Assembly (NCBI GenBank): GCA_964354005.1
Contig: CAYGYD010000001.1
Location: forward strand, 1 to 45,395
Length of the DNA stretch: 45,395 nt
Direction of reading: 5' to 3'
Source: an uncultured Dehalococcoidales bacterium
GTDB taxonomy: Bacteria; Chloroflexota; Dehalococcoidia; Dehalococcoidales; UBA2162
The notes below the pieces were generated by a model. The model did not search any database. It was not told the DNA's origin and saw nothing but the letters and a program-made list of their open reading frames with translations. Below are positions 9,210-36,997 of this stretch, piece by piece. Within the stretch, counting starts at the first letter, position 1. Each line of letters opens with the position of its first letter. The position numbers were made by a program, and so were the translations under genes.

Positions 9210-9289
9210 AGTTAGCGTGGTAGGCCAGGATTTTTCTATTGCCTGATTTATATAACTTGGCACCAGAGTTAGACGATTTAGGACATTTC

Positions 9290-20176: not shown

Positions 20177-20256
20177 TTTATCACCAGTTCCTCATTATCT
20201 CGTTTAGCATGAAGGTCACCGGCGGCTTTGAAATACTCTAGCGATACGGGTGATTC

Positions 20257-22961: not shown

Positions 22962-22980
22962 CAGTATTATCCTAATGGGT

Positions 22981-24414: not shown

Positions 24415-24532
24415 CTTCTTGTTCTATCGCAGCAATTCTGCGTATACTTTGAGGTAATAGTATCTTAGGGTAGAGCAGTGGTATGCTCCTAGCCGAGTAC
24501 ATTTACCCGAAGGTTCAGGGTCTCAGAAAAAC

Positions 24533-25921
24533 TCAGAACCTTCGTGAGTTCGGTGTTACGGCATCGCTTTCTCCTAATGGTTGTTCCCCTTCTTTCTCTT
24601 CTTTCTCTTGTTCTGCTCCAGAAATAAGCGGTGATGAGCGTACCTGTTGAACCAGCGCTCTGAAGTTAAGCACCAGCCAGGCCCCGAACAGACCCAGAAG
24701 CGTGCCCATTATCAGCGCATATCGTCCCTTGATTCTGTCTGGAGCGAGCGGTACCGGAGCTGAAGGGCTGTCCAAGGCTAGGGTGGCAATCAGGTCTAAC
24801 TGCTCAAGGTACTCACTGTTCAACGAGGTAAGGCTCCTGATAAGGTTGCTGCGCTCATATTCAAGGGCCGATTGCTTGGCAGTGAGAGTGATATAAGCCG
24901 GGGTCGTCTTGAACTCCTCAGCATTGCTTCCGGAATTCAAGGCGTCTATATCCTTTCGTATTAGTACGTACTCCAGGCTGATATCAGCCATTTCCCGGGT
25001 TATATATAAATACTCGTCAGAATCAAGGTCAAGCGCCATTTGAGCAAGGGACAGTTCGCTCAATCTTCCAGATAGCGCAGTAGCCTTCGTCTGGAGGACA
25101 ATGTAGTCCGGGTTTAGCGTAGGGTCCCCGGCGTCGGTGTCCTGCCCCGCAGTAAAGACAGCCAGTTCCGTGTCTACTTCCACCAAGTCGACACTGTTCT
25201 TGTCTAGCTTCTGTAAGAGGCGCTGGTACTGCTCAGACCGCGCTACTCCGGCCTGCTCATCCAGGTAAGATGGGAAAATTCGCGCAATCAGGTCGGCAAC
25301 AGCGTTCGACTCTTCAGGGTCATAGCTCGTCACCAGTACCCGCACATAGTGCTCAGCGTACCTATAACTGGCAGTCACCATCTCATCCAGCTCCTCCGGG
25401 CTTCGCTGATACTTGACGTTTGCCTTAGCTAGCTCCTCGCTAAGATATGTCATAAAAAGGGAAGTATTCAACGTAGCTTCGGAGTACTCACCAAAGGTCT
25501 CAAGCCTTTCCCTTTCTGCGCCACGTGTCCACCAACCTACGATGTTGACAAGAACTCTGCTTTCATAGACGGTAGGACGAGGCGCGGTTAGACCCGCCAC
25601 TTTGATAAGCGGCCACTCTCCGCTAAACCCGACCTGGACAGGGCTGATGGCCCAGTAACCGAGTCCTAGGCAGATTCCCAGAACAAGTCCTATGCTCAAA
25701 AAGACGATGGAGCGGCGGCTGAGAAGTGGCACGATGGTTGCTGTTGGTTTGTGTCTCTCTACCTTAACCTTCAGAATGGCCTCAAGACCATTACCTCCCC
25801 TCGCTGAGTTGGTAGCACGTTTTCTGCGGAATCGGCTAATCAAGTAGTCGATAAGCAAACCCGTAGCTGCTCCGATAGCAATAGCCACTAAGCATATCAC
25901 CACTATTTGCCACCATATCAT
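24533..25921 (-). CDS. Polysaccharide co-polymerase / chain-length determinant-like protein (Wzz/GumC-like), no kinase domain
   Basis: N-terminal TM helices, a long predicted helical/coiled extracytoplasmic region and a C-terminal TM helix (ALIMGTLLGLFGAWLVLNF). It sits next to wzy. This is a topology-based call. Confidence 0.5.
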   Translation of the reverse strand: MIWWQIVVICLVAIAIGAATGLLIDYLISRFRRKRATNSARGGNGLEAILKVKVERHKPTATIVPLLSRRSIVFLSIGLVLGICLGLGYWAISPVQVGFSGEWPLIKVAGLTAPRPTVYESRVLVNIVGWWTRGAERERLETFGEYSEATLNTSLFMTYLSEELAKANVKYQRSPEELDEMVTASYRYAEHYVRVLVTSYDPEESNAVADLIARIFPSYLDEQAGVARSEQYQRLLQKLDKNSVDLVEVDTELAVFTAGQDTDAGDPTLNPDYIVLQTKATALSGRLSELSLAQMALDLDSDEYLYITREMADISLEYVLIRKDIDALNSGSNAEEFKTTPAYITLTAKQSALEYERSNLIRSLTSLNSEYLEQLDLIATLALDSPSAPVPLAPDRIKGRYALIMGTLLGLFGAWLVLNFRALVQQVRSSPLISGAEQEKEEKEGEQPLGESDAVTPNSRRF

Positions 25922-25964
25922 ATCTCAACCTCCTATAAGATTGTCAGAAGTGCTCCAATCGGTT

Positions 25965-26246
25965 TCAATACAGCACTCCGATTCTATTTCGCCCGTCTCG
26001 CTCGTCTTTCTTACTAGGCAACGTCAACACTTCACTCATAACGGGGCTGAGCGAAGTCTCAGAAGCTGCTCCATGCAAATTTCCTTCAGCCATTGACATC
26101 ACCTTCCCATACAGGTGATACCGGCTTTTCTCCTGTTGACCGCTGGCAAGATGGCCCAGCATGACAACCTGATTGAGACCTGCGAAGGTATCTACCAGGC
26201 AAGTCCCGGTGAACGGCCCTGCGGGTAACCAACACTTTCTTTCCAC
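25965..26246 (-). pseudogene. Probable decayed remnant of a DegT-type aminotransferase gene
   Basis: nt 25971-26058 are homologous to 33380-33469, the 3' end plus downstream flank of the intact aminotransferase. By eye the core of ~60 nt is roughly 85 percent identical. The 93-aa ORF keeps LVD..(24 aa)..HLYG...HGA spacing resembling LVD..(27 aa)..HLYGHP..HGAEY of the intact genes. Confidence 0.4.
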
Positions 26247-26252
26247 ACAGTC

Positions 26253-27305
26253 TCATCGCTCTTCTCCTTGACCTTCTCTCCCGCTTCGCGTCAGGTAGGA
26301 GGGAAACGCCTCCGGCCGCAGCTTTTCCGGCTTACCGACGAAGAGGTAGGTGCCCACTCTAAGGTAGTGCCGGCAGGCGCGAGCTGAAGTCAGGACGGGT
26401 GACGGAGCCCATGTTTTGGCTAGGAGAACGGCAAGGGGTAGCCCGAGGCCTTTGAAGAATACCGAAGGGGAGGTCTTCATGGCCTTGAACAGGTATCCCC
26501 GTGCAGTTTTCATTTCTCCTTGGCTGTAGGCATGTTCTGCCACATGCAAGTAGAGGTACGAATAGGCTCTAGGCCTCTGAGCAGAAAGGAAGTAGCCCAG
26601 CTCTTTGTCATTGAAGATGCTTTCCAGAATGAGAGTGTGAGTCTGCTCTATTTCCTCCGGTGTTCGAGAAGATGTTATTGAATGGGCATGAACCCGGAAT
26701 TTGGCCAGCGGTTCAGCGATGTAGGCTACAGCATACTTCTTGGCCAGGCGTACCCACAGCTCAAGATCCTGAGAGCCAAACCGGAAAGCGGGGTTAAATC
26801 CACCTACCTCCTCAAGGCAACTTCGGCGAATCATAACGGTCGAAGGCGGAATGTAATTGCCAAAGATAAGGTCGGCAATTTCCTCTTTACCCTGTCGGAC
26901 ATAGGAAGACGTCAAGCGGTTCTTTCTTAGCCCTAGAATGCGTCCCTTTTCGTCGGTGACGTACCACTGACCGTAGCTGAACCCGACCTCAGGATACTTC
27001 TCCAGAGCCGCTACCCCTTTGTCCAAGGCACTCTGAATAATAACGTCATCCGAGTCCAGGAAAGTAAGGTATTTACCCCGGGCTAACCTGAGCCCTTTGT
27101 TACGTGCCGCCGGCGCCCCCTCGTTTTCCTGGTAGATGTATCTCACCGGGAGGCTAGAGACTACCAGCCGGGTATTATCTATTGAGCCATCATCAACGAC
27201 AATAACCTCGAAATCCCGGAAGGACTGTGCCAGGACGCTCAGGATGCACTCCCGGAGTAAGTGAGCCCGGTTATACGTGGGGATAATCACGCTTACCTTT
27301 GGCAC
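26253..27305 (-). CDS. GT2 family glycosyltransferase
   Basis: MPKVSVIIPTYNRAHLL...VIVVDDGSIDNT...FLDSDD. GTG start overlapping the upstream methyltransferase by 13 nt. Confidence 0.9.
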   Translation of the reverse strand: MPKVSVIIPTYNRAHLLRECILSVLAQSFRDFEVIVVDDGSIDNTRLVVSSLPVRYIYQENEGAPAARNKGLRLARGKYLTFLDSDDVIIQSALDKGVAALEKYPEVGFSYGQWYVTDEKGRILGLRKNRLTSSYVRQGKEEIADLIFGNYIPPSTVMIRRSCLEEVGGFNPAFRFGSQDLELWVRLAKKYAVAYIAEPLAKFRVHAHSITSSRTPEEIEQTHTLILESIFNDKELGYFLSAQRPRAYSYLYLHVAEHAYSQGEMKTARGYLFKAMKTSPSVFFKGLGLPLAVLLAKTWAPSPVLTSARACRHYLRVGTYLFVGKPEKLRPEAFPSYLTRSGREGQGEER

Positions 27306-28234
27306 GTTCTCACCTCCTTTCCTGGAGTACTCTCCGACCGTGATACGGTATTTGACTGTCGAGCTGTCCCGTTCCGGAAATCTTTGAATCTAGAATTGAA
27401 TCCAGTTGGCCGATCAATTTGTTCCATTATGAACAGGACACTGGAACGCAATCCAAACCTAGTGAGAAACCTGTTCGTGGGAATGATCGGCCATTCCGAA
27501 GCGCCGTATAGTAGCAGGGGTTCGATCCGCAACACCCTAAACCCGTGGCTCTGGAATAAGTCCCGCCAATGTTTCACTCTAAAAGACCTCAGGCAATCGA
27601 GGAAGCCAGTATAGCAACCATGACCACTAGGCAACAAAAGTCTTAGTGTTCCGGGGATCGAGCGATTCTCAGCCTGTTGCCTAGCATTCAGCGAAGAAGA
27701 TAGTCGTTTGCCCTTGGTAATGGTAATCTGGGCGTCGTTCTTATTGATTATGCCCAGCAGCCTTTTCATCAGCTTTGTTCCCTTGTTGTAATAGTCAGCA
27801 GGTACCGAAAGGAGAAGCCACAATGCGGTAGGAACTGAAAAAGCGTAGAGGCAGTTCGCCTTTCCAATCCTTCTAAGTTCCTGTAAGGCGCCATCCAGGT
27901 TCTCAATATGCTCAATGACATGATTGGAAAAAATGATGTCAAACTCGTTCGACTCAAAGGGGGCCGCGGTAATATTGCATTTGACAAACTCGATTCCGGT
28001 ATAGTTCTTGACGTTATCACTCTCGTACAAATCGCAAGCAATGACGTGGCCGAGGGTCTGCAAGTAAGGAATCTGAAATCCGTCGCCCGCACCGAATTCT
28101 AGAATCTCAGTCTCAGGTACGACACTCGAATCCGTCGCCCGCAGTTGTCTGATGCAGTCCAAGACGAGTTTGACCTCAGCAGACCGCTTGTTCTGGCGAT
28201 GTTTTCTCTCACCACTTAATGTTCTTGGCCACAT
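27293..28234 (-). CDS. Class I SAM-dependent methyltransferase
   Basis: ILEFGAGDGFQ (motif I) and FDIIFSNHVIEHIENL...LRRIGKANCLYAFSVP, typical of the Methyltransf_11/23 type. Confidence 0.8.
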   Translation of the reverse strand: MWPRTLSGERKHRQNKRSAEVKLVLDCIRQLRATDSSVVPETEILEFGAGDGFQIPYLQTLGHVIACDLYESDNVKNYTGIEFVKCNITAAPFESNEFDIIFSNHVIEHIENLDGALQELRRIGKANCLYAFSVPTALWLLLSVPADYYNKGTKLMKRLLGIINKNDAQITITKGKRLSSSLNARQQAENRSIPGTLRLLLPSGHGCYTGFLDCLRSFRVKHWRDLFQSHGFRVLRIEPLLLYGASEWPIIPTNRFLTRFGLRSSVLFIMEQIDRPTGFNSRFKDFRNGTARQSNTVSRSESTPGKEVRTCQR

Positions 28235-28583
28235 ATTCTCTCCGACTGATGAAAGTCTCCTTGCTTAAGCTGCTTACCGGTAGCAGCCATGGCCCACACG
28301 GGTCTCCTTCACTTTTCGTCGAGCACCTGTCCCTAGTCAAGTCACTTGAGCGATAGAGCATCGTCTTATGCTCCCTCACTTCGTCGTACTCTCGCCTATG
28401 CATCGGCAAACTTCTCACTGCTGGTGCTACCTCGCTAGAATCTGTCGGTGATCAATAACTCGGCGGTTAATTTGGTCGCGATCGGTGCCCAGACTCATTT
28501 TTGCTCCCCTTTCCGCGTATCCACGTCTCCTATCTCCGTTAAAGATGCCAGGGAAATATGCTGGGTTTGATGAGGGTGGTTAC

Positions 28584-29717
28584 TTATCTCCTTTTGCTCT
28601 GTTGGATTTCTTTCATGGTGTCACAGATATAGGTTTTCTGGTCGAGTGTTAAACCGGTACTTGAGGGCAAAAATAGGCCTCGTCTTCCCAGCTCTTCAGC
28701 TATCGGGTAGCTTTCCCCCACAAACAAGCCCATGTTTCGGAAACAGGGCTGAAGATGCATAGGAATAAAGAAAGCCCGGGTTTCAATCCCTTTTTCGGCC
28801 AGCCTAGCCATCAGCTCGTCCCGGGATAGGCCAAACTCATCCCTTATTACGATGGCATACATCCAGTAAACATTCTTTGCCCACTTTTTCTCTGGGGGTG
28901 GAGTTATGCCCGGCAACTCCTGCAATCGTCGATTATAAAACATAGCATTTTGCCGTCTCATTTCAACAAACTCATCAATTCGTTCCAGTTGAGCCAGCCC
29001 CATACCAGCCTGGATGTTAGTCATTCGGTAATTGAAGCCGATATCTGTATGTAAAAATCTCTTTTGAGGGGAGTGAGCCAGGTCTTTGAGGCGCCTAGCT
29101 CGGTCGGCCAACTTTTCATCGTTGGTGACAACCATTCCGCCTTCACCGGTCGTGATAATCTTATTTGCATAGAAGCTGAAGCAGCCCATGTCTCCGATGC
29201 TGCCGGCTTTTCTTCCTTTGTATTCGGCACCATGGACTTCAGCAGCATCTTCAACTATATATAGACTGTATCTCTTGGCAATTTCAATTATGGGGTCCAT
29301 ATCGCAGGGATGTCCATAGAGATGGACGGGCATTATGGCCTTTGTCTTCGGTGTTATCTTCTCCTCAATCTTGGTGACATCAATATTCCAGGTTTCCGGC
29401 TCCGAGTCGACGAGGACTGGCTTGGCGCCAGTGTAAACAATGGGGAAGAGCGAAGCCGACATGGTGAGGGTGGGTACAATCACCTCATCCCCCTCACCGA
29501 TGCCAAGAGACGCCAAAGCCAAATGGAGTGCAGTGGTGCCACTGGTCGTGGTTACCCCGTACTTACAGCCGCAGTAACGAGCAAACTTATCCTCAAATTC
29601 CTCAATGTACTTGCCCTTCGATGAAATCCAGTTAGTCTTAATGCATTCGGTAATGTATTCAAGTTCTCTTTCCCCGGTTAACGGCTCACACACTGAAATC
29701 ATTTGTTTCTTCCTCAT
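28584..29717 (-). CDS. DegT/DnrJ/EryC1/StrS family PLP-dependent sugar aminotransferase (copy 1)
   Basis: TSGTTALHLAL, VHLYGHPCDM, VEDAAEVHGAEYKG and SFYANKIITTGEGG (PLP-lysine region). Start at the internal ATG 29717, because the track start would overlap the upstream gene. Confidence 0.9.
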   Translation of the reverse strand: MRKKQMISVCEPLTGERELEYITECIKTNWISSKGKYIEEFEDKFARYCGCKYGVTTTSGTTALHLALASLGIGEGDEVIVPTLTMSASLFPIVYTGAKPVLVDSEPETWNIDVTKIEEKITPKTKAIMPVHLYGHPCDMDPIIEIAKRYSLYIVEDAAEVHGAEYKGRKAGSIGDMGCFSFYANKIITTGEGGMVVTNDEKLADRARRLKDLAHSPQKRFLHTDIGFNYRMTNIQAGMGLAQLERIDEFVEMRRQNAMFYNRRLQELPGITPPPEKKWAKNVYWMYAIVIRDEFGLSRDELMARLAEKGIETRAFFIPMHLQPCFRNMGLFVGESYPIAEELGRRGLFLPSSTGLTLDQKTYICDTMKEIQQSKRR

Positions 29718-29748
29718 GTTTAATTCCAGTCGTATCTTAACGTTATCC

Positions 29749-31089
29749 TTAGCTACGGTTGGATTTCCGATAATATGGTTGCCTTTCAATTGGAATCCCA
29801 TATCTTAGGTCGCTCTCCAGCCTGCCCAGAGTTATGTTCAATCCATACTCATGGGCCTGGCACAGTGGACAGGTTGGGGGATATTTGAAAATATGTCGGC
29901 GTAGTATATCGCCCAGACTTTCTTCTTTGACACTGCCCAGTCGAAGATGCTTGGAATCGGTCTGAAACCGTGGGTGGGAGGAGAACTCACAATAATACAG
30001 CGCGCCGTAGGGGTTCAGTCCTCTCTTTAACAAGCCGGCGCGGCAAAGAGTCGGTCTTCTCAATCTAGGCAGAAACTGGCTCGACCGTGATTCAAACTCG
30101 CCCTCAGCCATGCCCCGAATATCCAGTTCAACGCTGTCCTTGTTTTGGGTCAGTTCGACAATTTCGGTGCGGATAGCCTCCTTTTCATAGGTGGTGAAGT
30201 CTCTGACCATGCCCATAGCCTCCAGTCTGAAGTGTACCGAGTCCACTTTGAGGTGGCGTCCCAGGTTAACAAAGGCTGCCATTTCATCGTAGTTATCCGG
30301 TTGCAGTATCTGGCTTATGCCTATTTTGACGCTTTTATTCTTTGCCTTCTTCAAGCTCACCAGACTGGCGATATTATCAAGCACCCCGTCGTAGACACCG
30401 TCTGCCTGGGCTCCCTTCGCTTTGGGAAACTGAATATCACTATAGGTTGAAGGATTAGCCCCGTTCACACTGATCCTTATTTGATAGCAATCTAAGATGC
30501 TCTCCTGAGCTTCTTTGTTCATGGCGATGCCGTTGGTATAAAGCCTGGTTCTAAACCCCATTTCATTAGCCCTACGGATATACTCCGGCGTCAGGGGGTT
30601 AATGAAGGGCTCCTTGCCACCGGAGAACCATACCTCTTCGACACCGTTCTGCCGGCATTCATCAAATACTTCTACCACCCTCTCTAGGCTGACCGGCTTT
30701 TCTGCCTTGGTTAATTCAGCATAGTGCCAGCCATCACTGAAGCAGAACTTGCACTGGCACTGGCAGACTGGGCCGGGATGAAACTCGAGGATCAACGGGT
30801 AAACCTCGCTGCCTGAGAGTATCCTGGTCAAGTAATCTTGGTAGTGGGTCATCAAGTCACTGGCTAGAATGGTAAGCCTGGGTGATTTGGAATCCTCGAC
30901 GATGATGCGCTGTAGCCGGCTATCGTCTTGAATAATATCGTAATATGCCAGTAACTCTTCCTTGGGTAGCCCCAGCTTGCTGGCGATTTCCTCGCTAGTG
31001 AAGTCAGGATGGTCGACGAGCTCCTGGACAACGGAGACAAGGCTAGAATGGTATTGCTCCTTGAGATCCGCAAATGTGGTTGCTTTCAT
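29749..31089 (-). CDS. Radical SAM enzyme with N-terminal wHTH-like extension and C-terminal Cys-rich region
   Basis: CQCQCKFC at nt 30742-30765 gives CX3CX2C. FSGGKEPFINP is a GGE-like SAM motif. About 100 aa N-terminal to the core include TSEEIASKLGLPKEEL. There are four C-terminal cysteines (LCRAG, YYCEF, PTCPLC). Its ATG at 31089 overlaps the stop of the upstream GT4 (ATGA). Confidence 0.85.
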   Translation of the reverse strand: MKATTFADLKEQYHSSLVSVVQELVDHPDFTSEEIASKLGLPKEELLAYYDIIQDDSRLQRIIVEDSKSPRLTILASDLMTHYQDYLTRILSGSEVYPLILEFHPGPVCQCQCKFCFSDGWHYAELTKAEKPVSLERVVEVFDECRQNGVEEVWFSGGKEPFINPLTPEYIRRANEMGFRTRLYTNGIAMNKEAQESILDCYQIRISVNGANPSTYSDIQFPKAKGAQADGVYDGVLDNIASLVSLKKAKNKSVKIGISQILQPDNYDEMAAFVNLGRHLKVDSVHFRLEAMGMVRDFTTYEKEAIRTEIVELTQNKDSVELDIRGMAEGEFESRSSQFLPRLRRPTLCRAGLLKRGLNPYGALYYCEFSSHPRFQTDSKHLRLGSVKEESLGDILRRHIFKYPPTCPLCQAHEYGLNITLGRLESDLRYGIPIERQPYYRKSNRS

Positions 31090-32282
31090 CTTGCTACCCC
31101 TTTCTTCTGTTTCGGTGGCTGTTGAAGCGCCAAACATTTCTCGAAGACTTTAAGATACTCATACTTCATAATTTGCCACTGGCAGTTACGGTAGAACTCG
31201 TGGGCGCGTGCAGCCAACGAAACTCTCTTTTCTGGATTTTGGTATAGTTCCACAATTCGGTCAGCCAATGCTTTCTCATCCCCTGGTGGATAGTAGAGAA
31301 TACAGTCATCACTAAAGGTAGCCGTGAGACTGGGGAGAGCACTGGCCACAGAAGTGGTGCCCATGGCAGCATATTCAAACAGTTTGGTGGACACGCCTAT
31401 GTCAAATAACATAGGAGCTATCCCAACATGGGCTCGAGCGATTTTGGAGATAAGTTCTTCGTAGGGGATCAGACCGGTGAAATTGATGTACTCTGTGACT
31501 CTCATATTGCGAGCCAATCTCTCGAGTTCTGGTCGGTATTCTCCCGTCCCGGTCACATCCACTCGTAGCTCCGGGATACTAGGTAACAGCAAAGGGATAG
31601 CCCTGATGACTGTCTGCACTCCATACCTTTCCGTGAGAGTCGTGGCAACGATCAAGCGGAAGTGGTTCTCGTCCTTGGCGGTACCAAGCCGATCAAGGTT
31701 GAAGGAGGTGCTATTGGGTACGTTCAAAATGATGCTCATCTTCTCAACCGGCACGCCGCGGCTGGCCAGCACCTGTTTATAGGGAGCACCATCAGCGACG
31801 ATAACATGATGGGCATATTGGGCGCTTGCCCTCTCAACGAGGCGCAGCAGCCGGGCGCTGATGTGACCGTCATTTATCTTATAGGTCGAGGCAAAAAGCT
31901 GGGGCATATTCTCAAACATGTAGAGGATAACCTTGCAGCCCAGCAGCCTGGGGAAGAGAGTGGCGAAGACTAGGAAGTCAGGCATCGTGTCCACCTCGAT
32001 CACATCGTAGCGCTTCTTCAAAGAGAGCCAGGATAGTGCCAATGAAGCCGCGACGAAGAAGTAGCTGTATTCAAAAAGCTGTCTCAGGATACCCCGCCGG
32101 TGGTGCTCGCCGGGGAGACGGTAGACATTTACCCCACCAATGGTCTCTCTTGCCTTTTCGCCCTTCCTTCTAAGGCAAAGCATGTCCACCTGAAAACCCT
32201 CGCTGACCAGAGTCTCAGCATTCCTTTTCGGGTGCATTAGCCCGGGGTAATGGCTCAGCTTAACAATGCACACTTTTTTCAT
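31086..32282 (-). CDS. GT4 family glycosyltransferase
   Basis: GT-B fold pattern; C-terminal ...GVSTKLFEYAAMGTTSVAS... ATG at 32282 overlaps the upstream stop (ATGA). Confidence 0.8.
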   Translation of the reverse strand: MKKVCIVKLSHYPGLMHPKRNAETLVSEGFQVDMLCLRRKGEKARETIGGVNVYRLPGEHHRRGILRQLFEYSYFFVAASLALSWLSLKKRYDVIEVDTMPDFLVFATLFPRLLGCKVILYMFENMPQLFASTYKINDGHISARLLRLVERASAQYAHHVIVADGAPYKQVLASRGVPVEKMSIILNVPNSTSFNLDRLGTAKDENHFRLIVATTLTERYGVQTVIRAIPLLLPSIPELRVDVTGTGEYRPELERLARNMRVTEYINFTGLIPYEELISKIARAHVGIAPMLFDIGVSTKLFEYAAMGTTSVASALPSLTATFSDDCILYYPPGDEKALADRIVELYQNPEKRVSLAARAHEFYRNCQWQIMKYEYLKVFEKCLALQQPPKQKKGVAR

Positions 32283-33280
32283 GGATTCCTCGGCAAAGTG
32301 GCCTTCCACAGGCCAAGACGTCCCCACCCGTGTGCTGTTTTGTCTCGAACCAGCTCTTCGTAAACCGAGATGATTCTTCGACCGATTTGCCCGGCCTCCA
32401 TATGAGCGATTCTTCCGCGGCCATCAGTCCTCTGTCCCCAACGCACGGCCAGTTCTAGCTTCCGGGCGGCGTCTTCTGGGTCTTGCGAACATAGATAGCA
32501 TCCCGGGGTGTTGCCGATAACTTGAGGCACATCTCCAACTGGCACAGAAACAATCGGTAGGTTGCAAGCCATAGCTTCTTTGATAACCATAGGGGAGCCT
32601 TCCGCATCAGAGACTAGCAGCAATACGTCACAGGCATTCATGTATTTCGGCACCGCCGAAAGTGGCTTGCCCGAAACCAGAATCAGCTCTGCCTCAGGCA
32701 CTCTCGTCTTCAGGTGAGCTATCGCCTCCTGTACAATGTCAAACCTCTTCTCTGGTCGGAAATACTCTCCAGCCCAAAGTACCAGTTTCTTCTCCTGTGG
32801 GAGGTCAAGTTCCTCTCGCGCCTGCTTCTGGGGCATCGGCTTGAAAAGGTCGAAGTCAATCCCACAGGGGATGACGATGGCTTGGCTAAACCGGGCTTTT
32901 TCCTTCATCTCCTCCGACACCACAATCGTTCGGTCGACCAGAGGTGTGATTATCCGGCAGACACGCGCCTGATAGGTGGTGCGGAATACCTCCGGACCGT
33001 GGTGAGTAAGAACCACCGGGTGCAGGAACTGGGCCCGGGCGATCAGTCCGGAAAACGCATAGTGGGCGTGGAGCAGGTCATAGCGCTTCGTCAAAAGCCG
33101 GGCCCAAAGTCGGGGGAATGCCCATAGATAATTAAGAGTGTTTTTTCTACCGTTAACGAAGAATACCTCTAACTCCACGCCTTGCTTTCGCAGGGCTTCC
33201 GCTTGTTCTCGGACAAAGGTACCAAAAGATGGCATCTCGGGTATGGGATACATATTGGTAACAACCAAGACTTTCACCAT
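32279..33280 (-). CDS. GT4 family glycosyltransferase
   Basis: SDAEGSPMVIKEAMACNLPIVSVPVGDVPQVI (E-x7-E region). Confidence 0.85.
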   Translation of the reverse strand: MVKVLVVTNMYPIPEMPSFGTFVREQAEALRKQGVELEVFFVNGRKNTLNYLWAFPRLWARLLTKRYDLLHAHYAFSGLIARAQFLHPVVLTHHGPEVFRTTYQARVCRIITPLVDRTIVVSEEMKEKARFSQAIVIPCGIDFDLFKPMPQKQAREELDLPQEKKLVLWAGEYFRPEKRFDIVQEAIAHLKTRVPEAELILVSGKPLSAVPKYMNACDVLLLVSDAEGSPMVIKEAMACNLPIVSVPVGDVPQVIGNTPGCYLCSQDPEDAARKLELAVRWGQRTDGRGRIAHMEAGQIGRRIISVYEELVRDKTAHGWGRLGLWKATLPRNP

Positions 33281-33406: not shown

Positions 33407-34552
33407 CTAGCTCGTTTTTTCTTGATAGGCAACGTCAACATTTAACTCGCCCCGAGACCGAGTGAAGTCCCGAATGGAATCACAAATGTAGCTCACTTCC
33501 TCCTCAGTCAGCTCGGGGTACATGGGAAGGGAGATTATCTCCTTTGTTATTCTTTCGGTAATTGGCAACCAAGCGTTGCCTCCGTCATACTGGCGCCAGG
33601 CTTCCTGAAGGTGAATGGGGAAGGGATAATGCATCCCGGTGCCGACACCTTTAGTCTCCAGCCAAGCCCGAAGTTCGTCTCGGTACGCAGTTCTGATGAC
33701 ATAGAGATGATAGACATGCTTCGCCCATGACATCTCCTGCGGTGGCACCATTGATGGAGGCAGTAGAGCATCGTAGGCCCTAGCCAGGCTTCGCCGCTTT
33801 TCAATCCACTCATCAAGATGGGGAAGCTTTACCTTTAAAACAGCTGCCTGGATTTCATCGAGGCGACCGTTGATTCCCATGACAGCGTGAACATACTTTG
33901 TGTCTTGGCCATGGTCTCGCAACATCCGGCACCGCTTGGCTATATCAGGGTCGGAAGTGGTAATCATACCCCCCTCACCATAAGCACCTAGGTTCTTGGT
34001 GAAGTAGAAACTAAAGCAACCAGCATCCCCGAGCGAGCCGGTACGCTGTCCCTTGTATTCAGCACCATGAGCTTGGCAGGCATCCTCGATAACCCTCAGG
34101 CGATAGGACCTGGCTAATTCTAGTATTGGGGTCATATCGGCCGGGTGTCCGTAGAGATGCACGGGGATGATGGCTTTAGTCCTCTTGTTTATCATTCTTT
34201 CTACTTGAGAAGGGTCTATGTTATAGGTATTAAGGTCAATGTCAACCAGTACCGGCCGGGCGCCTGTCAGAACAATAGCCTCGACGGTAGCAATGAAGGT
34301 ATGAGAAACCGTAATTACCTCGTCGCCCGGTCCAACCCCACAGGCGAGGAGAGCCAAGTGCAGAGCATCGGTACCTGAGCCTACACCAATGGCAGACTTA
34401 GTGCCACAGTAAGCAGCGAAATCTGATTCAAAGGTCTGAACGTTCTTGCCCAGGAATAGCTGCATACCGTCCAGTGCCTTGCCTATCTCAGCCAGCACTT
34501 CTTCCTTTATACCCTGATATTGTTTTTTCAGGTCAACCAATGGTATACGCAT
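33407..34552 (-). CDS. DegT/DnrJ/EryC1/StrS family PLP-dependent sugar aminotransferase (copy 2, WbpE/WlbC-like context)
   Basis: GSGTDALHLAL, VHLYGHPADM, IEDACQAHGAEYKG and SFYFTKNLGAYGEGG. Overlaps the upstream acetyltransferase by 20 nt. Confidence 0.9.
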   Translation of the reverse strand: MRIPLVDLKKQYQGIKEEVLAEIGKALDGMQLFLGKNVQTFESDFAAYCGTKSAIGVGSGTDALHLALLACGVGPGDEVITVSHTFIATVEAIVLTGARPVLVDIDLNTYNIDPSQVERMINKRTKAIIPVHLYGHPADMTPILELARSYRLRVIEDACQAHGAEYKGQRTGSLGDAGCFSFYFTKNLGAYGEGGMITTSDPDIAKRCRMLRDHGQDTKYVHAVMGINGRLDEIQAAVLKVKLPHLDEWIEKRRSLARAYDALLPPSMVPPQEMSWAKHVYHLYVIRTAYRDELRAWLETKGVGTGMHYPFPIHLQEAWRQYDGGNAWLPITERITKEIISLPMYPELTEEEVSYICDSIRDFTRSRGELNVDVAYQEKTS

Positions 34553-35210
34553 TTGTTATTCTCCCTATCAGGTCACTGTATGGTTTGTCTCTGAGACCGG
34601 TGGTACAGATTAGGTCTCCTATTTTGCAGGCAACCTGTGCCGGATTACCATAGGCAACCACACCAGGTGGGATGTCTTTAGTCACTACACTTCCGGCACC
34701 GATTACCGAGTATTCACCGATGACTACGCGGGGAAGCACGCAGCAGCTGATACCGATCTGAGCCCCCTTCTTGATGCGCGGGCCTTGCATGCACTCTATG
34801 GCATCGGGGCAGCCGGGGTGAACGTCATTAGCTAAGGTAACCCCAGGACCCAGGAAAACATCATCTTCGACGATTGTGAATTGGGTGACATAAACATTGT
34901 TGTGAATCTTGACGTTATTTCCAATTATGCAGCCGTAGTCGATAATGGAGTTACTCCAGATGCGCAAGTTGTTTCCGATAATATTCTCCTCCCTGATAAT
35001 CACATTGTGGCCGGTCTCCAGATTTTGTCCAATGCGGCTACCCCGGTAGATAACGGTGCCAGAACGAATGTGAGCACCGGCACCAATAACCAGCGGGTGA
35101 CCGTCACCGCGACTTGGGGTATAGCCAAGACGTACACCATCGTCAATTATGGCTTTCCCCCCCAGTCTCACTATCTGACTATTATCTTCTGGTTCGATAA
35201 AAGACTCCAT
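34533..35210 (-). CDS. Left-handed beta-helix (hexapeptide-repeat) sugar N-acetyltransferase (WbpD/WlbB/QdtC-like)
   Basis: Repeated [LIV]G-x4 hexapeptides (IGNNLRIWSNSIIDYGCIIGNNVKIHNNVYV...). Start at the internal ATG 35210, downstream of the upstream gene's stop at 35218. Confidence 0.85.
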   Translation of the reverse strand: MESFIEPEDNSQIVRLGGKAIIDDGVRLGYTPSRGDGHPLVIGAGAHIRSGTVIYRGSRIGQNLETGHNVIIREENIIGNNLRIWSNSIIDYGCIIGNNVKIHNNVYVTQFTIVEDDVFLGPGVTLANDVHPGCPDAIECMQGPRIKKGAQIGISCCVLPRVVIGEYSVIGAGSVVTKDIPPGVVAYGNPAQVACKIGDLICTTGLRDKPYSDLIGRITNAYTIG

Positions 35211-35217
35211 TTTTCCC

Positions 35218-36276
35218 TCACTTCTCAACGAATTGTGGTTGTCCTCGCTTGATATCGTCCGCGAGTGATTTTGTCTTAACTCGCTGCCCACCGTTCGCCA
35301 GTGATATATCGGCTGCTTCCAGAATGCTGACTACTTTAAATCCAGCCCGGCCGTCACTCCTTGGTCTCTTACCTTTGACTATACACTCTAGGAAATGGCT
35401 GCATTCCAGCTTGAGAGGCTCAGCGTTGGAGATAAAGGGTATGGTCACATCGCCATAGCGGTAGTTGGGCGGCCAAGCCGAGAACCCATTGCTGCCATCG
35501 CTGGATATAACGAGTCCCTTATCGTAGATATGTATTTTCTCCGTTTCGGAAACATCATCATATACCGCCATTTTTTCGCTACCGACGATGGTGATCTCTC
35601 GGATCTTGCGTGGGTGGAGCCAGCTCACATGTATGTGACCCATGGTGCCGTTAGCGAACAGCAACTCGAGGTAAGCTATATCACAGACCTTGGGGTCTAC
35701 ATGGTGACTACCGCGGGCACTTACGGCGATAGGCTCCTTGTTCAACAACGAAAGCATAATGCTTATATCATGGGGAGCTAGGTCCCAAAGAACGTTTACA
35801 TCAGGCCGGAACAGGCCAAGGTTAAGTCGGTGGGCATCAATGCTATAAATCTCGCCCAGCTCACCACTGTCCACCAGTTTTCTCAGTAAATCCACCGCCG
35901 GATGATATTCATAAGTGTGTCCCACCATGAGCACCAGGTTCCGCTTCTCCGCCAGTTCAATAAGTTCCCAAGCTTTATGGCTATTGGTAGTCATCGGTTT
36001 TTCTATCAGGACATGCTTATTACGGAGTAACGCCTCCTTTGCCAGTTTATAGTGTGTATCGACCGGAGTGACTATTACCACCGCATCCACGCCCTCCTCT
36101 AGGAGGTCTCCGAAATCGGTGGTTGTTTGTACATAGGGATATTGAGTTCGAACCTGCTGAAGCTTATGCTCATCAAGGTCACAAACTGTGGTCAGCTTGG
36201 CCTCAGACAACTCGTGATAGTTCCTGATGTGCTTTGGCCCCCAGTAACCACAACCCACAACGCCAATATTAACCAT
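35218..36276 (-). CDS. Gfo/Idh/MocA family NAD-dependent sugar oxidoreductase (WbpB/WlbA-like)
   Basis: MVNIGVVGCGYWGPKH Rossmann N-terminus and EKP motif (VLIEKPM). The internal ATG 36276 is preceded by GGAAGGAGGAG. Confidence 0.85.
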   Translation of the reverse strand: MVNIGVVGCGYWGPKHIRNYHELSEAKLTTVCDLDEHKLQQVRTQYPYVQTTTDFGDLLEEGVDAVVIVTPVDTHYKLAKEALLRNKHVLIEKPMTTNSHKAWELIELAEKRNLVLMVGHTYEYHPAVDLLRKLVDSGELGEIYSIDAHRLNLGLFRPDVNVLWDLAPHDISIMLSLLNKEPIAVSARGSHHVDPKVCDIAYLELLFANGTMGHIHVSWLHPRKIREITIVGSEKMAVYDDVSETEKIHIYDKGLVISSDGSNGFSAWPPNYRYGDVTIPFISNAEPLKLECSHFLECIVKGKRPRSDGRAGFKVVSILEAADISLANGGQRVKTKSLADDIKRGQPQFVEK

Positions 36277-36298
36277 CTTGCTCCTCCTTCCCGATTTG

Positions 36299-36997
36299 TC
36301 AGCTGCCATCTTGGCTGAGAATCGTGCGCACAGTTAGCAGTGCAATCTTCGCATCCAAGAGTGCTGACTGCCTGTTTATGTAGTCAATATCAAGACGTAC
36401 CATGTCCTCAAAAGAGAGACTCTTCCGCCCGGAGACCTGCCAAAGGCCGGTGATACCTGGTTTGACACGAAGCCTCTCCCGATGCCAGTCCTTATACATT
36501 CGCACCGCAAAAGGGATATCCGGTCGGGGACCAATGAATGACATCTCTCCCTTCAGTATATTGAATAGTTGTGGAAGCTCATCCAGATTAGTCTTCCTCA
36601 GCAGAGTGCCAAACCTCGTCACCGACATCCCATCAGCTTTGTAGATGCTCTGTCCATTCTCGTCCACTCGGTAAGGCGCATTTTCGAGGATGTACCGGCA
36701 GAGATATGACTTATATTCACCGTCGTCATTATCTATAGGCATGCACCGAAACTTGTAACATTTGAAGCGGTGCCCGTCCTTCCCAACTCGCTCTTGTACA
36801 AATATCGGATTTCCCGGCGAATCCACCCTGATCACGACGGCAATCAGGATCAGGATGGGGAGGGAAGCAGCTATGGCCAGGAGTGCCAGCAGGCGGTCCA
36901 GAATTCCCTTCCAGTTGGGATAGCCGAACTGGTGATAGCCCCTTTCCCTCTCCCTTGCCTCCCTAGCAACCGGAATCTGCTTCTCGGCCAGTTTCAT
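36299..36997 (-). CDS. Initiating polyprenyl-phosphate sugar-phosphate transferase (small PglC/WbaP-C-type bacterial sugar transferase)
   Basis: One N-terminal re-entrant helix; RVGKDGHRFKCYKFRCM, DELPQLFNILKGEMSFIGPRP, PGITGLWQVSGR. Its ATG overlaps the upstream stop (ATGA at 36994-36997). Confidence 0.9.
   Translation of the reverse strand: MKLAEKQIPVAREARERERGYHQFGYPNWKGILDRLLALLAIAASLPILILIAVVIRVDSPGNPIFVQERVGKDGHRFKCYKFRCMPIDNDDGEYKSYLCRYILENAPYRVDENGQSIYKADGMSVTRFGTLLRKTNLDELPQLFNILKGEMSFIGPRPDIPFAVRMYKDWHRERLRVKPGITGLWQVSGRKSLSFEDMVRLDIDYINRQSALLDAKIALLTVRTILSQDGS

Follow-up and report, generated by a model that had tools for sequence, protein, structure and literature searches.

A radical SAM enzyme and a C4-type aminotransferase that probably build an unusual amino sugar in Dehalococcoidia cell-surface glycan clusters

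In butirosin biosynthesis, the radical SAM dehydrogenase BtrN acts before the DegT-family aminotransferase BtrS, and viperin is a radical SAM CTP dehydratase that abstracts H-4' and then expels the 3'-OH. DesII of Streptomyces venezuelae (8HZV), a TDP-4-amino-4,6-dideoxy-D-glucose deaminase, has three domains: six helices at the N-terminus, the radical SAM core, and a beta-hairpin with helices at the C-terminus. It binds a single cluster and has no auxiliary one, D456 is an essential residue, and the enzyme also accepts TDP-quinovose, which it dehydrogenates, and TDP-fucose, which it partly dehydrates (PMC11434129). In the twitch domain of BtrN, four cysteines ligate an auxiliary [4Fe-4S] cluster, and in BtrN and anSME such a fully ligated cluster is the proposed oxidant of the substrate radical (PMC6231123, PMC10337720). 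In apramycin biosynthesis, the radical SAM 1,2-diol dehydratase AprD4 works with an NADPH reductase partner, AprD3, and the keto-deoxy sugar is then reduced (PMC5461906).

We analysed a 45,395-nucleotide stretch of DNA (hereafter the window) from an uncultured Dehalococcoidales bacterium, in which a rare radical SAM enzyme of 446 aa, from a family uncharacterised to date, is encoded directly upstream of a DegT-family aminotransferase (Table 1).

The radical SAM gene and its glycan locus

The 446-aa protein starts at an internal ATG (31089) of the open reading frame 29749–31137 (−). This ATG (31089–31087), with a Shine-Dalgarno-like AAAGGGG on its 5' side, shares bases with the TGA (31088–31086) of the GT4 gene, while the TAA stop (29751–29749) lies 31 nt from the next ATG, at 29717. 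The frame, the ATGA overlap and the 31-nt spacing had all been described in a first-pass annotation and are seen in the sequence; the translational coupling to GT4 proposed there is suggested by the overlap. An alternative DegT ATG at 29702 may be the real start of that gene because it has a better ribosome-binding site (GAGGAAG) and aligns with position 1 of the LegC-family profile. Promoter-like and terminator-like matches across 27800–33600 are at chance level.

The presence of Wzx and Wzy_C proteins bears out the initial description of a Wzx/Wzy cell-surface glycan locus. The gene at 24533–25921 has no Pfam match and is termed Wzz-like from two terminal hydrophobic segments in its translation. 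A Pfam scan of 27 proteins from the main long open reading frames of the window (leaving out small ones that overlap longer ones) found neither a 4,6-dehydratase nor a nucleotidyltransferase, as the annotation had reported, and the sole extended SDR among the scanned frames is GalE (9239–10270).

Table 1. Features of the radical SAM gene and the surrounding glycan locus
Feature	Position	Strand	Evidence or closest match
DegT-family PLP aminotransferase, C4 type	28584..29717	(-)	Pfam, NCBIfam LegC, PDB match 3BN1, synteny
Radical SAM gene, 446 aa	29749..31089	(-)	ORF and sequence; Pfam PF04055; AF2 model; Foldseek
N-terminal all-helical domain, ~residues 1-95	30805..31089	(-)	DSSP on AF2 model
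CX3CX2C motif (C109, C113, C116), SAM-cleaving [4Fe-4S] cluster	30742..30765	(-)	Sequence; invariant in alignment
Twitch-type motif C349-x12-G362-x4-C367 ... C407-x2-C410	29860..30045	(-)	Family alignment; AF2 model
ATGA overlap, radical SAM start / upstream GT4 stop	31086..31089	(-)	Sequence
GT4 glycosyltransferase directly 5' of radical SAM gene	31086..32327	(-)	Pfam; synteny
Second GT4 of syntenic block	32279..33280	(-)	Pfam; synteny
C3-amination module, separate	33407..36309	(-)	Pfam and NCBIfam
C3-type DegT	33407-34552	(-)	Closest to QdtB, DesV, WbpE
Hexapeptide acetyltransferase	34533-35291	(-)	Pfam, NCBIfam
Gfo/Idh/MocA 3-dehydrogenase-like gene	35218-36309	(-)	Closest: 7BVJ, archaeal UDP-GlcNAc 3-dehydrogenase model
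Operon head	36299..38328	(-)	Pfam, NCBIfam
Initiating polyprenyl-phosphate sugar-phosphate transferase	36299-36997	(-)	Pfam, NCBIfam
NDP-sugar 6-dehydrogenase	36994-38328	(-)	Pfam, NCBIfam
Remaining glycan locus	18256..28234	(-)	Pfam
Class I methyltransferase	27293-28234	(-)	Pfam
GT2	26253-27305	(-)	Pfam
Protein with Wzz-like topology	24533-25921	(-)	Two terminal hydrophobic segments
Wzy_C protein	22981-24414	(-)	Pfam
GT4	21798-22961	(-)	Pfam
Wzx	20257-21801	(-)	Pfam
Two GT2 genes	18256-20176	(-)	Pfam

Kinship with DesII and iron–sulphur cysteines

When assigned by HMM, the protein matches Pfam Radical_SAM (PF04055) at 40.4 bits (gathering score 29.5) and, as its best but sub-threshold NCBIfam family, DesII (TIGR04426, alignment beginning at residue 11) at 83.9 bits versus a cut-off of 450, a score that rules out a DesII orthologue. 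DesII is also the top PDB sequence match (E 2e-11 with the single sequence, 3e-20 with a family profile), and a Foldseek search with the AF2 model (pLDDT 90) returns 8HZV as the top structural match across all three domains (TMq 0.73, 465 columns, 18% identity). The motifs PGPxC..C.FC, FSGG.EP..NP and YTN, which had been likened to DesII in the first-pass annotation, are common to both proteins. Sequence and model support a distant relationship to DesII over the full length. A prokaryotic viperin model reaches 48.9 bits (family cut-off 180), viperin is among the fold matches, and the second-tier fold and sequence matches are the SPASM/twitch peptide maturases SkfB, SuiB, CteB and PqqE. BtrN appears neither among the PDB sequence matches at E ≤ 1 nor among the first 50 fold matches, i.e. 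homology to BtrN is not detectable.

The N-terminal extension had been described as winged-helix-like and ∼100 aa long, with PqqD-like RREs suggested for comparison. It spans ∼95 aa and is not a winged helix because it is all-helical in the model: DSSP assigns seven helices (residues 6–12, 15–26, 32–39, 43–55, 57–65, 70–82 and 84–92) and no strand, which excludes an RRE as well. It superposes on the helical domain of DesII and, as modelled, is equivalent to that six-helix domain (PMC11434129). This bears directly on an earlier reading of the protein as a RiPP maturase, in which a peptide-recognition domain at the N-terminus would precede the radical SAM core and a Cys-rich tail. Although the second-tier matches are of that kind, the reading is highly improbable: the N-terminal domain has no beta-sheet, the SkfB match spans only 314 columns, no precursor-like gene is conserved beside the radical SAM gene, and the conserved neighbours and fusion partners are all sugar enzymes.

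The CX3CX2C motif lies where it had first been placed and is invariant in the family alignment, while the additional C111 is not kept. The four C-terminal cysteines (C349, C367, C407 and C410) are invariant in 19/19 family members and are retained by nearly all full-length members among the 150 best representatives. In the model, C349 precedes a beta-hairpin (355–358/363–365), C367 follows the hairpin and C407/C410 follow a helix, an order that agrees with the described twitch layout (PMC6231123); the Pfam SPASM match is weak (18 bits versus 21.5). Judged by sequence, the four cysteines probably ligate a second, fully ligated auxiliary Fe-S cluster of twitch type. The first-pass annotation had raised this possibility; of its BtrN/twitch reading, the twitch part is supported by the cysteine motif, and homology to BtrN is not detectable.

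Outside these three and four cluster cysteines there is no invariant cysteine. As far as we know, the radical SAM sugar epimerases described so far carry a twitch domain, and an epimerase or other redox-neutral tailoring enzyme (HygY, NeoN or AbmJ type) would change the stereochemistry of the DegT-made amino sugar or of another NDP-sugar and leave no ketone. We consider this unlikely, as a conserved eighth cysteine that could give back the hydrogen atom is missing.

The DegT partner, related loci and the order of steps

The downstream protein matches Pfam DegT_DnrJ_EryC1 at 431.8 bits and the LegC family profile at 370.5 bits (cut-off 420); in the PDB it best matches 3BN1, the perosamine synthase of Caulobacter (379 bits, 353 residues). 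It is ∼50% identical to a bona fide GDP-perosamine synthase, retains the PLP lysine K186 (FSFYANK) and, by sequence, resembles C4-type aminotransferases such as GDP-perosamine synthase and LegC.

Related loci show the order GT4b–GT4a–radical SAM–DegT–Wzy. A C4-type DegT lies immediately 3' of the radical SAM gene in every Chloroflexota-type locus with downstream sequence (the window plus L001/L012, L002, L003/L013, L005, L006, L011/L018, L015/L019, L020, L021 and L022), and these DegT orthologues are 75–82% identical. A DegT is also present in four lineages that are distant and largely phage-like (L007, L008/L009, L016 and L026), here 0.6–3.5 kb 3' of the radical SAM gene. Neither the roughly eight distinct loci from Chloroflexota nor the phage-like ones yielded a 4,6-dehydratase (up to ∼10 kb on each side), and a GMD probe search of the fetched related loci returned nothing. 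The SDR of L001-type loci, in which the motif reads SSSSVYG, is similar to UDP-hexuronate and HexNAc 4-epimerases. In L003, which lacks the C3-amination module, an RMD-like SDR flanks the radical SAM gene upstream and a perosamine-synthase-like DegT downstream; the top PDB match of this SDR is the GDP-6-deoxy-D-lyxo-4-hexulose reductase 2PK3 (294 bits versus ∼170 for GMDs). Within the same signature clade, the radical SAM protein is truly fused to a Gfo/Idh/MocA protein in ten or more representative clusters, with neither stop codon nor methionine at the junction, and KijD10-type sugar 3-ketoreductase is among the matches of the fusion partners. One fusion has a UDP-sugar pyrophosphorylase domain as well; its neighbours are housekeeping genes, with no aminotransferase among them. 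DegT fusions are found in more distant relatives.

Beyond the motifs, fold relationship, invariant cysteines, synteny and fusions, which are observed directly, we infer the substrate, regiochemistry, step order and chemistry as follows. Using radical chemistry, either a diol dehydration or a dehydrogenation, the radical SAM enzyme would produce a 4-keto sugar for the aminotransferase to aminate, a reading to which we give a probability of about 0.5. The substrate would be a nucleotide sugar and most likely a GDP-hexose. After SAM cleavage at the CX3CX2C cluster, the 5'-deoxyadenosyl radical would abstract hydrogen at a carbinol position; the C4 type of the partner aminotransferase makes C4 the probable site. 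The resulting alpha-hydroxyalkyl radical could lose the adjacent hydroxyl, as in the 1,2-diol dehydration of AprD4 and viperin, to give a 4-keto-3-deoxy sugar. Alternatively, it could be oxidized to a 4-keto sugar by BtrN-like dehydrogenation. On either route the Cys4 auxiliary cluster would handle the electron. Dehydration is slightly favoured because the radical chemistry then has a non-redundant role, whereas a plain dehydrogenase would duplicate the cheap work of NAD-dependent enzymes. DegT (PLP, K186) would convert the ketone into a 4-amino sugar, which the adjoining GT4 enzymes would place on the Wzx/Wzy-type surface glycan.

Radical SAM action before transamination was not among the three readings of the first-pass annotation, and the wider evidence favours it. 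The minimal conserved unit, radical SAM plus DegT, yields a stable sugar only in this order, and both kinds of partner are explained since the ketone may be either reduced (Gfo/Idh/MocA) or transaminated (DegT). The conserved DegT pairing, the missing 4,6-dehydratase and the auxiliary-cluster motif that DesII lacks point the same way, with precedents in the side reactions of DesII on TDP-quinovose and TDP-fucose and in the AprD4/AprD3 pair. In L003 the RMD-like SDR and DegT are both of types that consume GDP-4-keto sugars, which puts the radical SAM enzyme at the position of GMD; it would stand in for this 4,6-dehydratase of the classical perosamine and rhamnose pathways. Against this order, DesII, the closest characterized relative, works after its C4-aminotransferase, and DegT could use GDP-4-keto-6-deoxymannose made by a GMD whose gene lies in another part of the genome, as the dehydratase search covers 45 kb of the source genome and at most ∼10 kb on each side in relatives. 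Also, an SDR that carries the motif SSSEAYG is encoded ∼9 kb upstream of the radical SAM gene in L015, and in L004, L010 and L027 neither a DegT nor a reductase lies near it. The latter three loci would suit a partner-free enzyme such as an epimerase, which would leave the strict DegT pairing and the recurrent Gfo/Idh/MocA and DegT fusions unexplained.

The opposite order would be a DesI/DesII-type C4 deoxygenation of a GDP-sugar. A 4,6-dehydratase elsewhere would supply an NDP-4-keto-6-deoxyhexose, DegT would make a 4-amino sugar (e.g. GDP-perosamine), and the radical SAM enzyme would abstract H-3 and expel ammonia, leaving a 3-keto-4,6-dideoxy sugar. Completion of this sugar would fall to a ketoreductase or to the operon's own C3 aminotransferase and acetyltransferase. 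DesII is the nearest characterized relative in sequence, profile and full-length fold, and the DegT partner is C4-type, like DesI. D427, which is invariant across the whole superfamily, would correspond in approximate position to the essential D456 of DesII, a placement inferred rather than aligned (PMC11434129). Moreover, the window also encodes an acetyltransferase and a C3 aminotransferase similar to DesV and QdtB, and the Gfo/Idh/MocA fusion partners could be C3 ketoreductases. This order is a serious alternative, though less probable than the first. The dehydratase is missing from the loci searched, the L003 SDR is nearest to a 4-ketoreductase rather than a dehydratase, and the C3 module (Gfo, acetyltransferase and DegT) looks self-contained, of GnnA/WbpB type, and is dispensed with in L003. 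Furthermore, the radical SAM–Gfo(–UDPGP) fusions come with neither aminotransferase nor dehydratase, and the protein falls far below the DesII equivalog cut-off and has an auxiliary-cluster motif that DesII does not have. In the earlier DesI/DesII reading, kinship with DesII is supported as distant homology and not as orthology, and the gene context gives the complete scheme no support.

The enzyme might also act after glycosyl transfer, on a lipid-linked repeat unit or the polymer, or on a non-sugar substrate. A GT-B glycosyltransferase is encoded directly 5' in the window and the Chloroflexota loci, and L010 has a GT on each side, but this remains very unlikely given that DesII, the sole characterized relative, uses an NDP-sugar, that one homologue includes a fused UDP-sugar pyrophosphorylase domain, and that the partners resemble nucleotide-sugar enzymes (perosamine synthase, RMD and Gfo).

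Comparison with known systems

Radical formation of the ketone followed by transamination would be a route to an amino sugar that is uncharacterized so far, and it borrows features from several known systems. With DesII, the radical SAM protein shares the three-domain layout and a gene adjoining that of a C4-type sugar aminotransferase. It differs in (i) a C-terminal domain that cannot be aligned at the sequence level; (ii) its four invariant auxiliary-cluster cysteines, where DesII has one cluster; (iii) a locus without 4,6-dehydratase; (iv) a partner that resembles a GDP-sugar rather than a TDP-sugar enzyme; (v) its setting, a cell-surface glycan instead of a macrolide sugar; and (vi) a step order that is probably reversed.

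BtrN and BtrS follow the logic proposed here, carbinol radical oxidation and then transamination. BtrN, however, lacks detectable homology outside the radical SAM core, has no helical domain at the N-terminus and acts on an aminocyclitol rather than on a nucleotide sugar. Viperin shows weak core similarity and fold matches, and its H-4' abstraction and 3'-OH loss are the kind of chemistry that we propose for the dehydration here, but it lacks the N-terminal helical domain and the twitch cysteines and acts on a nucleotide ribose. AprD4/AprD3, with AprD4 compared by description, is the model for the dehydratase variant and parallels the Gfo/Idh/MocA fusions and the RMD-like neighbour in L003; its substrate is a pseudodisaccharide instead of an NDP-sugar, and the main partner here is an aminotransferase.

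Finally, the DegT aligns with Caulobacter perosamine synthase of the GDP-perosamine pathway, and the upstream SDR of L003 is closest to the RMD 2PK3 of the GDP-D-rhamnose pathway. Both pathways begin with GMD, which is followed by Per or RMD, respectively. In contrast to both pathways, GMD was not found and the radical SAM enzyme occupies its position, so the keto-sugar would differ from GDP-4-keto-6-deoxymannose in retaining the 6-OH and possibly in being 3-deoxy.

The radical SAM gene and its kinship to DesII

The radical SAM gene starts at the ATG at 31089, inside a minus-strand ORF of 29749-31137, and encodes a protein of 446 aa. A purine-rich AAAGGGG stretch lies 5' of the ATG (31089-31087), which overlaps the stop codon of the GT4 gene before it (TGA, 31088-31086), and the stop codon (29751-29749) is separated by 31 nt from the next ATG (29717); ORF and sequence thus bear out the gene length, ATGA overlap and gap given in the first-pass annotation. 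The position of the CX3CX2C motif was also exact: C109-x3-C113-x2-C116 is encoded at 30765-30742, all members of the family alignment have these three cysteines, and C111, a fourth cysteine within the motif, is not conserved. The protein matches Pfam Radical_SAM (PF04055) with 40.4 bits (gathering threshold 29.5). Its SAM-binding GGE motif is present in FSGGKEP, with W154-E160 invariant, and aligns with FSGGLEP of DesII, where the motif is G187-E190 (PMC11434129). The adjoining 3' gene, described earlier as a DegT aminotransferase, is indeed one (Pfam DegT_DnrJ_EryC1, 431.8 bits). A later ATG of this gene, at 29702, follows a better ribosome-binding site (GAGGAAG) and corresponds to position 1 of the LegC-family profile; if this is the true start, the gap is 46 nt rather than 31. 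Promoter-like and terminator-like matches in 27800-33600 of the window are at chance level only, so nothing in them speaks against co-transcription.

By every measure used (i.e. NCBIfam, PDB sequence and structure), the nearest characterised relative of the protein is DesII, a radical SAM sugar deaminase (PDB 8HZV, NCBIfam TIGR04426). The PDB entry matches at E 2e-11 with the single sequence and at 3e-20 with the family profile. In Foldseek, the full-length AF2 model (pLDDT 90, pTM 0.89) aligns with it at TMq 0.73 over 465 columns and 18% identity. The predicted structure matches the three-domain architecture of DesII, i.e. a helical N-terminal domain, a radical SAM core and a C-terminal hairpin followed by helices; the C-terminal domain shows no sequence-level alignment with DesII. 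On the DesII equivalog model, the score is 83.9 bits (E 1e-23, residues 11-306, including the N-terminal extension), which is far under the cut-off of 450 and indicates a relative of DesII rather than DesII itself. The DesII-like reading proposed earlier therefore holds for kinship but not for equivalence.

Neither this protein nor ten other members checked reached the cut-off of any curated family model. In the HMM-based subgroup check, the DesII model was the best match, below threshold, and Pfam SPASM (PF13186) was likewise sub-threshold (18.0 bits versus a gathering value of 21.5, E 0.0036, residues 357-399). None of ten members spot-checked among the 150 best representatives exceeded 100 bits on TIGR04426. 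Membership of the prokaryotic viperins (NF038283) was rejected at 48.9 bits versus a cut-off of 180. The protein falls within the DesII superfamily, in a branch that is uncharacterised.

The N-terminal extension had been read as a winged-helix-like domain, possibly a PqqD-like RRE, which would carry a three-stranded sheet. In the AF2 model, residues 1-95 instead form seven helices and no strand, similar to the six-helix N-terminal domain in the published domain layout of DesII (PMC11434129). The idea of a RiPP maturase loses support with it: the fold matches to SkfB and SuiB span only the radical SAM core and twitch domain, and the conserved neighbours of the gene encode GT4, DegT and Wzy proteins, a sugar-gene context with no precursor-like peptide gene among these neighbours. 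N-terminal fold and gene context together speak strongly against this reading, and we regard a RiPP role as having a negligible chance of being correct.

A putative auxiliary cluster

The C-terminal domain contains the motif C349-x12-G362-x4-C367, a 39-residue gap and C407-x2-C410. This resembles the CX9-15GX4C...CX2C signature of SPASM domains, which have seven cysteines, and of twitch domains, their truncated form with one auxiliary cluster (PMC6231123). Since a further CX5CX3C is absent after C410 in the sequence, the domain is of twitch rather than SPASM type. The predicted topology agrees: in the twitch layout one cysteine precedes a beta-hairpin, one follows it and two follow the next helix (PMC6231123), and in the model strands 355-358 and 363-365 lie between C349 and C367, followed by helices 373-378 and 392-397 and then by C407 and C410. 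The four cysteines are invariant in 19/19 family members, down to 33% identity, and are kept in almost all full-length members among the 150 best representatives. The auxiliary-cluster cysteines noticed in the first-pass annotation are thus upheld as a twitch-type motif, the cluster itself being putative.

DesII coordinates a single [4Fe-4S] cluster (PMC11434129), in contrast to the four additional invariant cysteines found here. Together with the near-universal presence of these cysteines, this makes the radical SAM protein a DesII-fold enzyme with a probable Cys4 auxiliary cluster. Among the 150 best representatives, the four twitch cysteines are missing from only three (P0081, P0092 and P0134), which suggests that the family mostly has two clusters and that forms without the auxiliary cluster, DesII among them, are uncommon offshoots. 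The NCBIfam model identifies none of the three as a true DesII; all score below 100 bits, and they were rejected in a search among these representatives for a true DesII orthologue that would allow alignment of the DesII catalytic residues E408 and D456. D427 of the radical SAM protein may correspond to D456.

In BtrN, the presumed auxiliary-cluster ligands are C169, C187, C232 and C235. BtrN (PDB 4M7T) is neither among the PDB sequence matches at E <= 1, by single sequence or profile, nor among the 50 best fold matches of the model. Membership of the BtrN family was therefore rejected, as no homology is detectable by sequence, profile or top-50 fold. That the enzyme acts as an epimerase, as had been suggested beside a BtrN-type dehydrogenase, or in some other tailoring role appears improbable.

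Gene neighbourhoods, relatives and fusions

The main long ORFs of the window were scanned with Pfam, and the resulting glycan locus is listed in the table with features of the related loci. As stated in the first-pass annotation, no NDP-hexose 4,6-dehydratase or nucleotidyltransferase is found among these ORFs; the only extended SDR in the window is a bona fide GalE (390 bits versus a cut-off of 262).

Features of the glycan locus, its surroundings and related loci and proteins
Feature	Source	Coordinates	Strand	Remarks
Glycan locus	window	38328 to 18256	-	gene order read along the minus strand (Pfam/NCBIfam)
Gene 1, NDP-sugar 6-dehydrogenase	window		-	
Gene 2, small polyprenyl-phosphate sugar-phosphate transferase	window		-	
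Genes 3 and 4, Gfo/Idh/MocA oxidoreductase (Gfo) and hexapeptide acetyltransferase	window		-	
Gene 5, DegT aminotransferase	window	33407-34552	-	closest to QdtB, DesV, WbpE
Genes 6 and 7, two GT4 glycosyltransferases	window	31086-32327	-	coordinates of the GT4 gene upstream of gene 8
Gene 8, radical SAM protein	window	29749-31089	-	
Gene 9, second DegT aminotransferase	window	28584-29717	-	radical SAM partner
Genes 10 and 11, class I methyltransferase and GT2 glycosyltransferase	window		-	
Gene 12, protein of Wzz-like topology	window	24533-25921	-	462 aa
Gene 13, Wzy_C protein	window	22981-24414	-	
Genes 14 and 15, GT4 glycosyltransferase and Wzx	window		-	
Genes 16 and 17, two GT2 glycosyltransferases	window		-	
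Signalling-domain protein	window	38367-40940	-	857 aa
Multidomain protein	window	10710-15602	-	1630 aa
GalE	window	9239-10270		
Extended SDR	L015	252-1253		
ThiF-family gene	L006	9553-10506		3' of Wzy
ThiF-family gene	L011	14113-15006		3' of Wzy
ThiF-family gene	L015	14113-15012		3' of Wzy
Phage-like radical SAM relative	L004	4072-5385		
Phage-like radical SAM relative	L007	10001-12331		P0021
Phage-like radical SAM relative	L008/L009	9977-11281		
Phage-like radical SAM relative	L016	7973-9256		
Phage-like radical SAM relative	L027	9986-11218		
Radical SAM-Gfo/Idh/MocA fusion	L017	10001-15025		
Radical SAM-Gfo/Idh/MocA fusions	P0025, P0027, P0028, P0030-P0033, P0037, P0041, P0044			
Giant proteins with radical SAM domain	P0046, P0048, P0054, P0073, P0103, P0162			5,700-7,840 aa

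Several other genes of the window bear on the envelope. The 462-aa protein, encoded between GT2 and Wzy genes, has no Pfam match; a hydrophobic segment at both ends and a long coiled-coil-like middle give it the topology of a Wzz chain-length regulator. The 1630-aa protein contains He_PIG, malectin, cadherin-like, PKD and fibronectin-III domains. It is a candidate surface or S-layer-type protein and might accept the glycan, in which case the Wzy_C protein could be an O-oligosaccharyltransferase rather than a polymerase. Directly 5' of the operon head, the 857-aa protein combines receiver, GGDEF, HATPase_c and HD-GYP-like (HD_5) domains, and its domains and position suggest a link between c-di-GMP and envelope synthesis.

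The two DegT aminotransferases differ in type. DegT 33407-34552 is nearest to C3 aminotransferases, and the Gfo gene is nearest to 7BVJ and an archaeal UDP-GlcNAc 3-dehydrogenase model; with the acetyltransferase, they appear to form a module of their own that would oxidise, aminate and acetylate C3. A single desosamine-like pathway joining this module to the radical SAM-DegT pair was set aside, because the module looks self-contained (GnnA/WbpB-WbpE-WbpD type) and is absent from the related locus L003. The partner DegT, by contrast, is of C4 type by its sequence matches. It gives 379 bits over 353 residues against Caulobacter GDP-perosamine synthase (3BN1) and 370.5 bits (cut-off 420) on the LegC-family model TIGR04181, and keeps the PLP lysine (K186 in FSFYANK). 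GDP-perosamine synthase and the LegC family are C4 aminotransferases of GDP-sugars.

These matches bear on an order as in DesI/DesII, DesI being the C4 aminotransferase that acts before DesII. The partner DegT would then supply a 4-amino-4,6-dideoxy sugar for deamination by the radical SAM enzyme; this is the main alternative to the order proposed below. In its favour, the radical SAM protein has no closer characterised relative than DesII, and the partner is a C4 aminotransferase that, being highly similar to a true perosamine synthase, could use GDP-4-keto-6-deoxymannose from a GDP-sugar 4,6-dehydratase (GMD) encoded elsewhere.

A word-indexed search of 5.8 billion proteins returned only 24 relatives, and a scan of 185,579 species genomes returned five loci, all in Dehalococcoidia or Chloroflexota MAGs. 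An exhaustive profile search returned 235 representative clusters at E < 1e-30. In all Chloroflexota-type loci with downstream sequence (L001/L012, L002, L003/L013, L005, L006, L011/L018, L015/L019, L020, L021 and L022), the same C4-type DegT gene lies directly 3' of the radical SAM gene, at 75-82% identity, and the usual block is GT4-GT4-radical SAM-DegT-Wzy. Several related loci also contain a ThiF-family (E1-like adenylyltransferase) gene after Wzy, which is not present in the window. The recurrent glycosyltransferase genes might suggest that the radical SAM enzyme acts after glycosyl transfer, which we consider very improbable.

A 4,6-dehydratase was found neither in the window nor in any related locus inspected, and probes for GMD (from E. 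coli) and for ManB/ManC gave no match in the fetched loci. NCBIfam matches of neighbouring SDRs were mixed and all below cut-off, so these proteins were classed by motif inspection and PDB searches. The SDRs of L001, L005 and L006 have SSSSVYG at the catalytic position and are nearest to UDP-glucuronate and UDP-HexNAc 4-epimerases. L015 encodes an extended SDR with the catalytic-site motif SSSEAYG, the Glu type as in UXS, GMD and RMD (GDP-4-keto-sugar reductase). It heads its locus, where other loci have the 6-dehydrogenase, and is the one neighbour that might, in principle, make a 4-keto sugar. In L003, the SDR directly 5' of the radical SAM gene is nearest to the RMD 2PK3 (GDP-6-deoxy-D-lyxo-4-hexulose reductase, 294 bits), ahead of heptose 4,6-dehydratase (245 bits) and GMDs (about 170 bits). 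Both flanking enzymes of L003, RMD-like SDR and DegT, are of types that consume GDP-4-keto sugars, and the radical SAM gene thus stands where GMD does in classical rhamnose and perosamine clusters. Consistent absence of an upstream dehydratase and a dedicated downstream reductase from the loci, and the presence in L003 of a neighbour nearest to a reductase, argue against the DesI/DesII order.

Relatives with 33-43% identity occur on contigs that resemble large uncultured phages, with closely packed small ORFs in one direction, ThyX, Dam methylase, Band_7, YAcAr and a PHROG DNA polymerase match; PHROGs gave only two informative matches for these contigs. A C4-like DegT gene lies 0.6-3.5 kb downstream of the radical SAM gene in L007, L008/L009, L016 and L026, and none was seen near it in L004, L010 and L027. 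Inteins occur inside the radical SAM gene on such contigs. Two family members, P0021 and P0029, are interrupted by inteins (Pfam Intein_splicing; P0021 also PT-HINT), with one of them inserted near the CX3CX2C region. The L008 gene 5' of the radical SAM gene was rejected as a homologue of the GT4 of the window, with no significant similarity and no Pfam match. Family patterns found no relative in IMG/VR viral contigs, and BFVD viral structures gave no full-length match (best TMq ~0.5, generic radical SAM proteins).

At least ten representative clusters are true fusions: a single polypeptide continues directly from the end of the radical SAM domain into a Gfo/Idh/MocA domain with its Rossmann fold. 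They share the extended signature of the family (K159, E160, R205, R288, R325, K355, R356, H372, Q411, E414, N418, D427 and Q437). One fusion, P0031 (1674 aa), has an added UDP-sugar pyrophosphorylase domain and is a near-complete pathway within one polypeptide; it is encoded without an aminotransferase on an archaeon-like contig, amid housekeeping genes (tRNA-synthetase, GatD/GatE-type). Such fusions without an aminotransferase are a further argument against the DesI/DesII order, which we consider rather unlikely overall. In more distant relatives, the fusion partner is DegT (P0145 and P0052) or a PIG-L deacetylase, HAD or methyltransferase domain. P0052 (1631 aa) has the order radical SAM-DegT-radical SAM, and the best model for the DegT domain of P0145 (784 aa) is DesI, at 184 bits and far under the cut-off. 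Several fusions have lengths between 1,400 and 7,840 aa, and both clusters looked up, including the giant P0046 (Candidatus Omnitrophota), are from Omnitrophota. A 2026 preprint on "multi-enzyme" giant proteins of Omnitrophota is in line with this, naming radical SAM as one of their sugar-metabolism domains (bioRxiv 10.64898/2026.06.07.730766).

Proposed chemistry and comparison with known enzymes

We propose that the radical SAM enzyme would form a keto-sugar from a hydroxylated nucleotide sugar, and that this ketone would then be transaminated (in the window) or reduced (in the Gfo fusions and perhaps L003). Ketone formation as the first step would account at once for the aminotransferase and reductase partners and for the lack of a dehydratase. 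The ketone could arise by (i) 1,2-diol dehydration, as in AprD4 or viperin, or (ii) BtrN-like dehydrogenation. AprD4 dehydrates a 1,2-diol and its product is reduced by AprD3 (PMC5461906), and the Cys4 auxiliary cluster of BtrN is proposed to accept the electron (PMC10337720, PMC6231123). DesII can dehydrogenate TDP-quinovose and, in part, dehydrate TDP-fucose (PMC11434129), so that both reactions lie within reach of the scaffold. Dehydration is slightly favoured here, since plain oxidation would duplicate NAD-dependent enzymes. Likeness of the partners to perosamine synthase, LegC and RMD suggests that the substrate may be a GDP-hexose, with chemistry at C4.

In this proposal, a two-cluster DesII-fold enzyme would stand in the place of GMD, before perosamine-synthase-like, RMD-like and Gfo/Idh/MocA enzymes, and the module would also be common to the fusion proteins from the archaeon-like contig. 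Its products would lie outside the classical pathway, as 4-amino-3,4-dideoxy or 3-deoxy sugars, or 4-amino-4-deoxy sugars that retain the 6-OH. We give a probability of about 40% to this reading, i.e. a dehydratase-independent radical entry to 4-keto, 4-amino or 3-deoxy nucleotide sugars that is common to Dehalococcoidia, phages and Omnitrophota fusion proteins. If it is true, it would be a new amino- and deoxy-sugar entry point that bypasses the 4,6-dehydratase, it would predict unusual sugars on the Dehalococcoidia envelope, and it would suggest that a much larger family gave rise to DesII as an offshoot lacking the auxiliary cluster.

Literature searches on DesII with polysaccharide, radical SAM with O-antigen epimerase, radical SAM dehydrogenase with aminotransferase, and DegT with twitch found nothing relevant. 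What emerges is an uncharacterised family with a predicted DesII fold and a putative auxiliary-cluster domain, encoded in surface-glycan loci of uncultured Dehalococcoidia, whose sugar-ketone-processing partners (C4 aminotransferase, RMD-like reductase and fused Gfo/Idh/MocA) make its chemistry testable. To our knowledge, few sugar-tailoring radical SAM enzymes have been characterised (DesII, BtrN, AprD4, BlsE and a few epimerases), nearly all from antibiotic pathways. If the DesI/DesII order were true instead, the pair would be the first DesII-type C4 deoxygenation we know of outside secondary metabolism, on a probable GDP-sugar.
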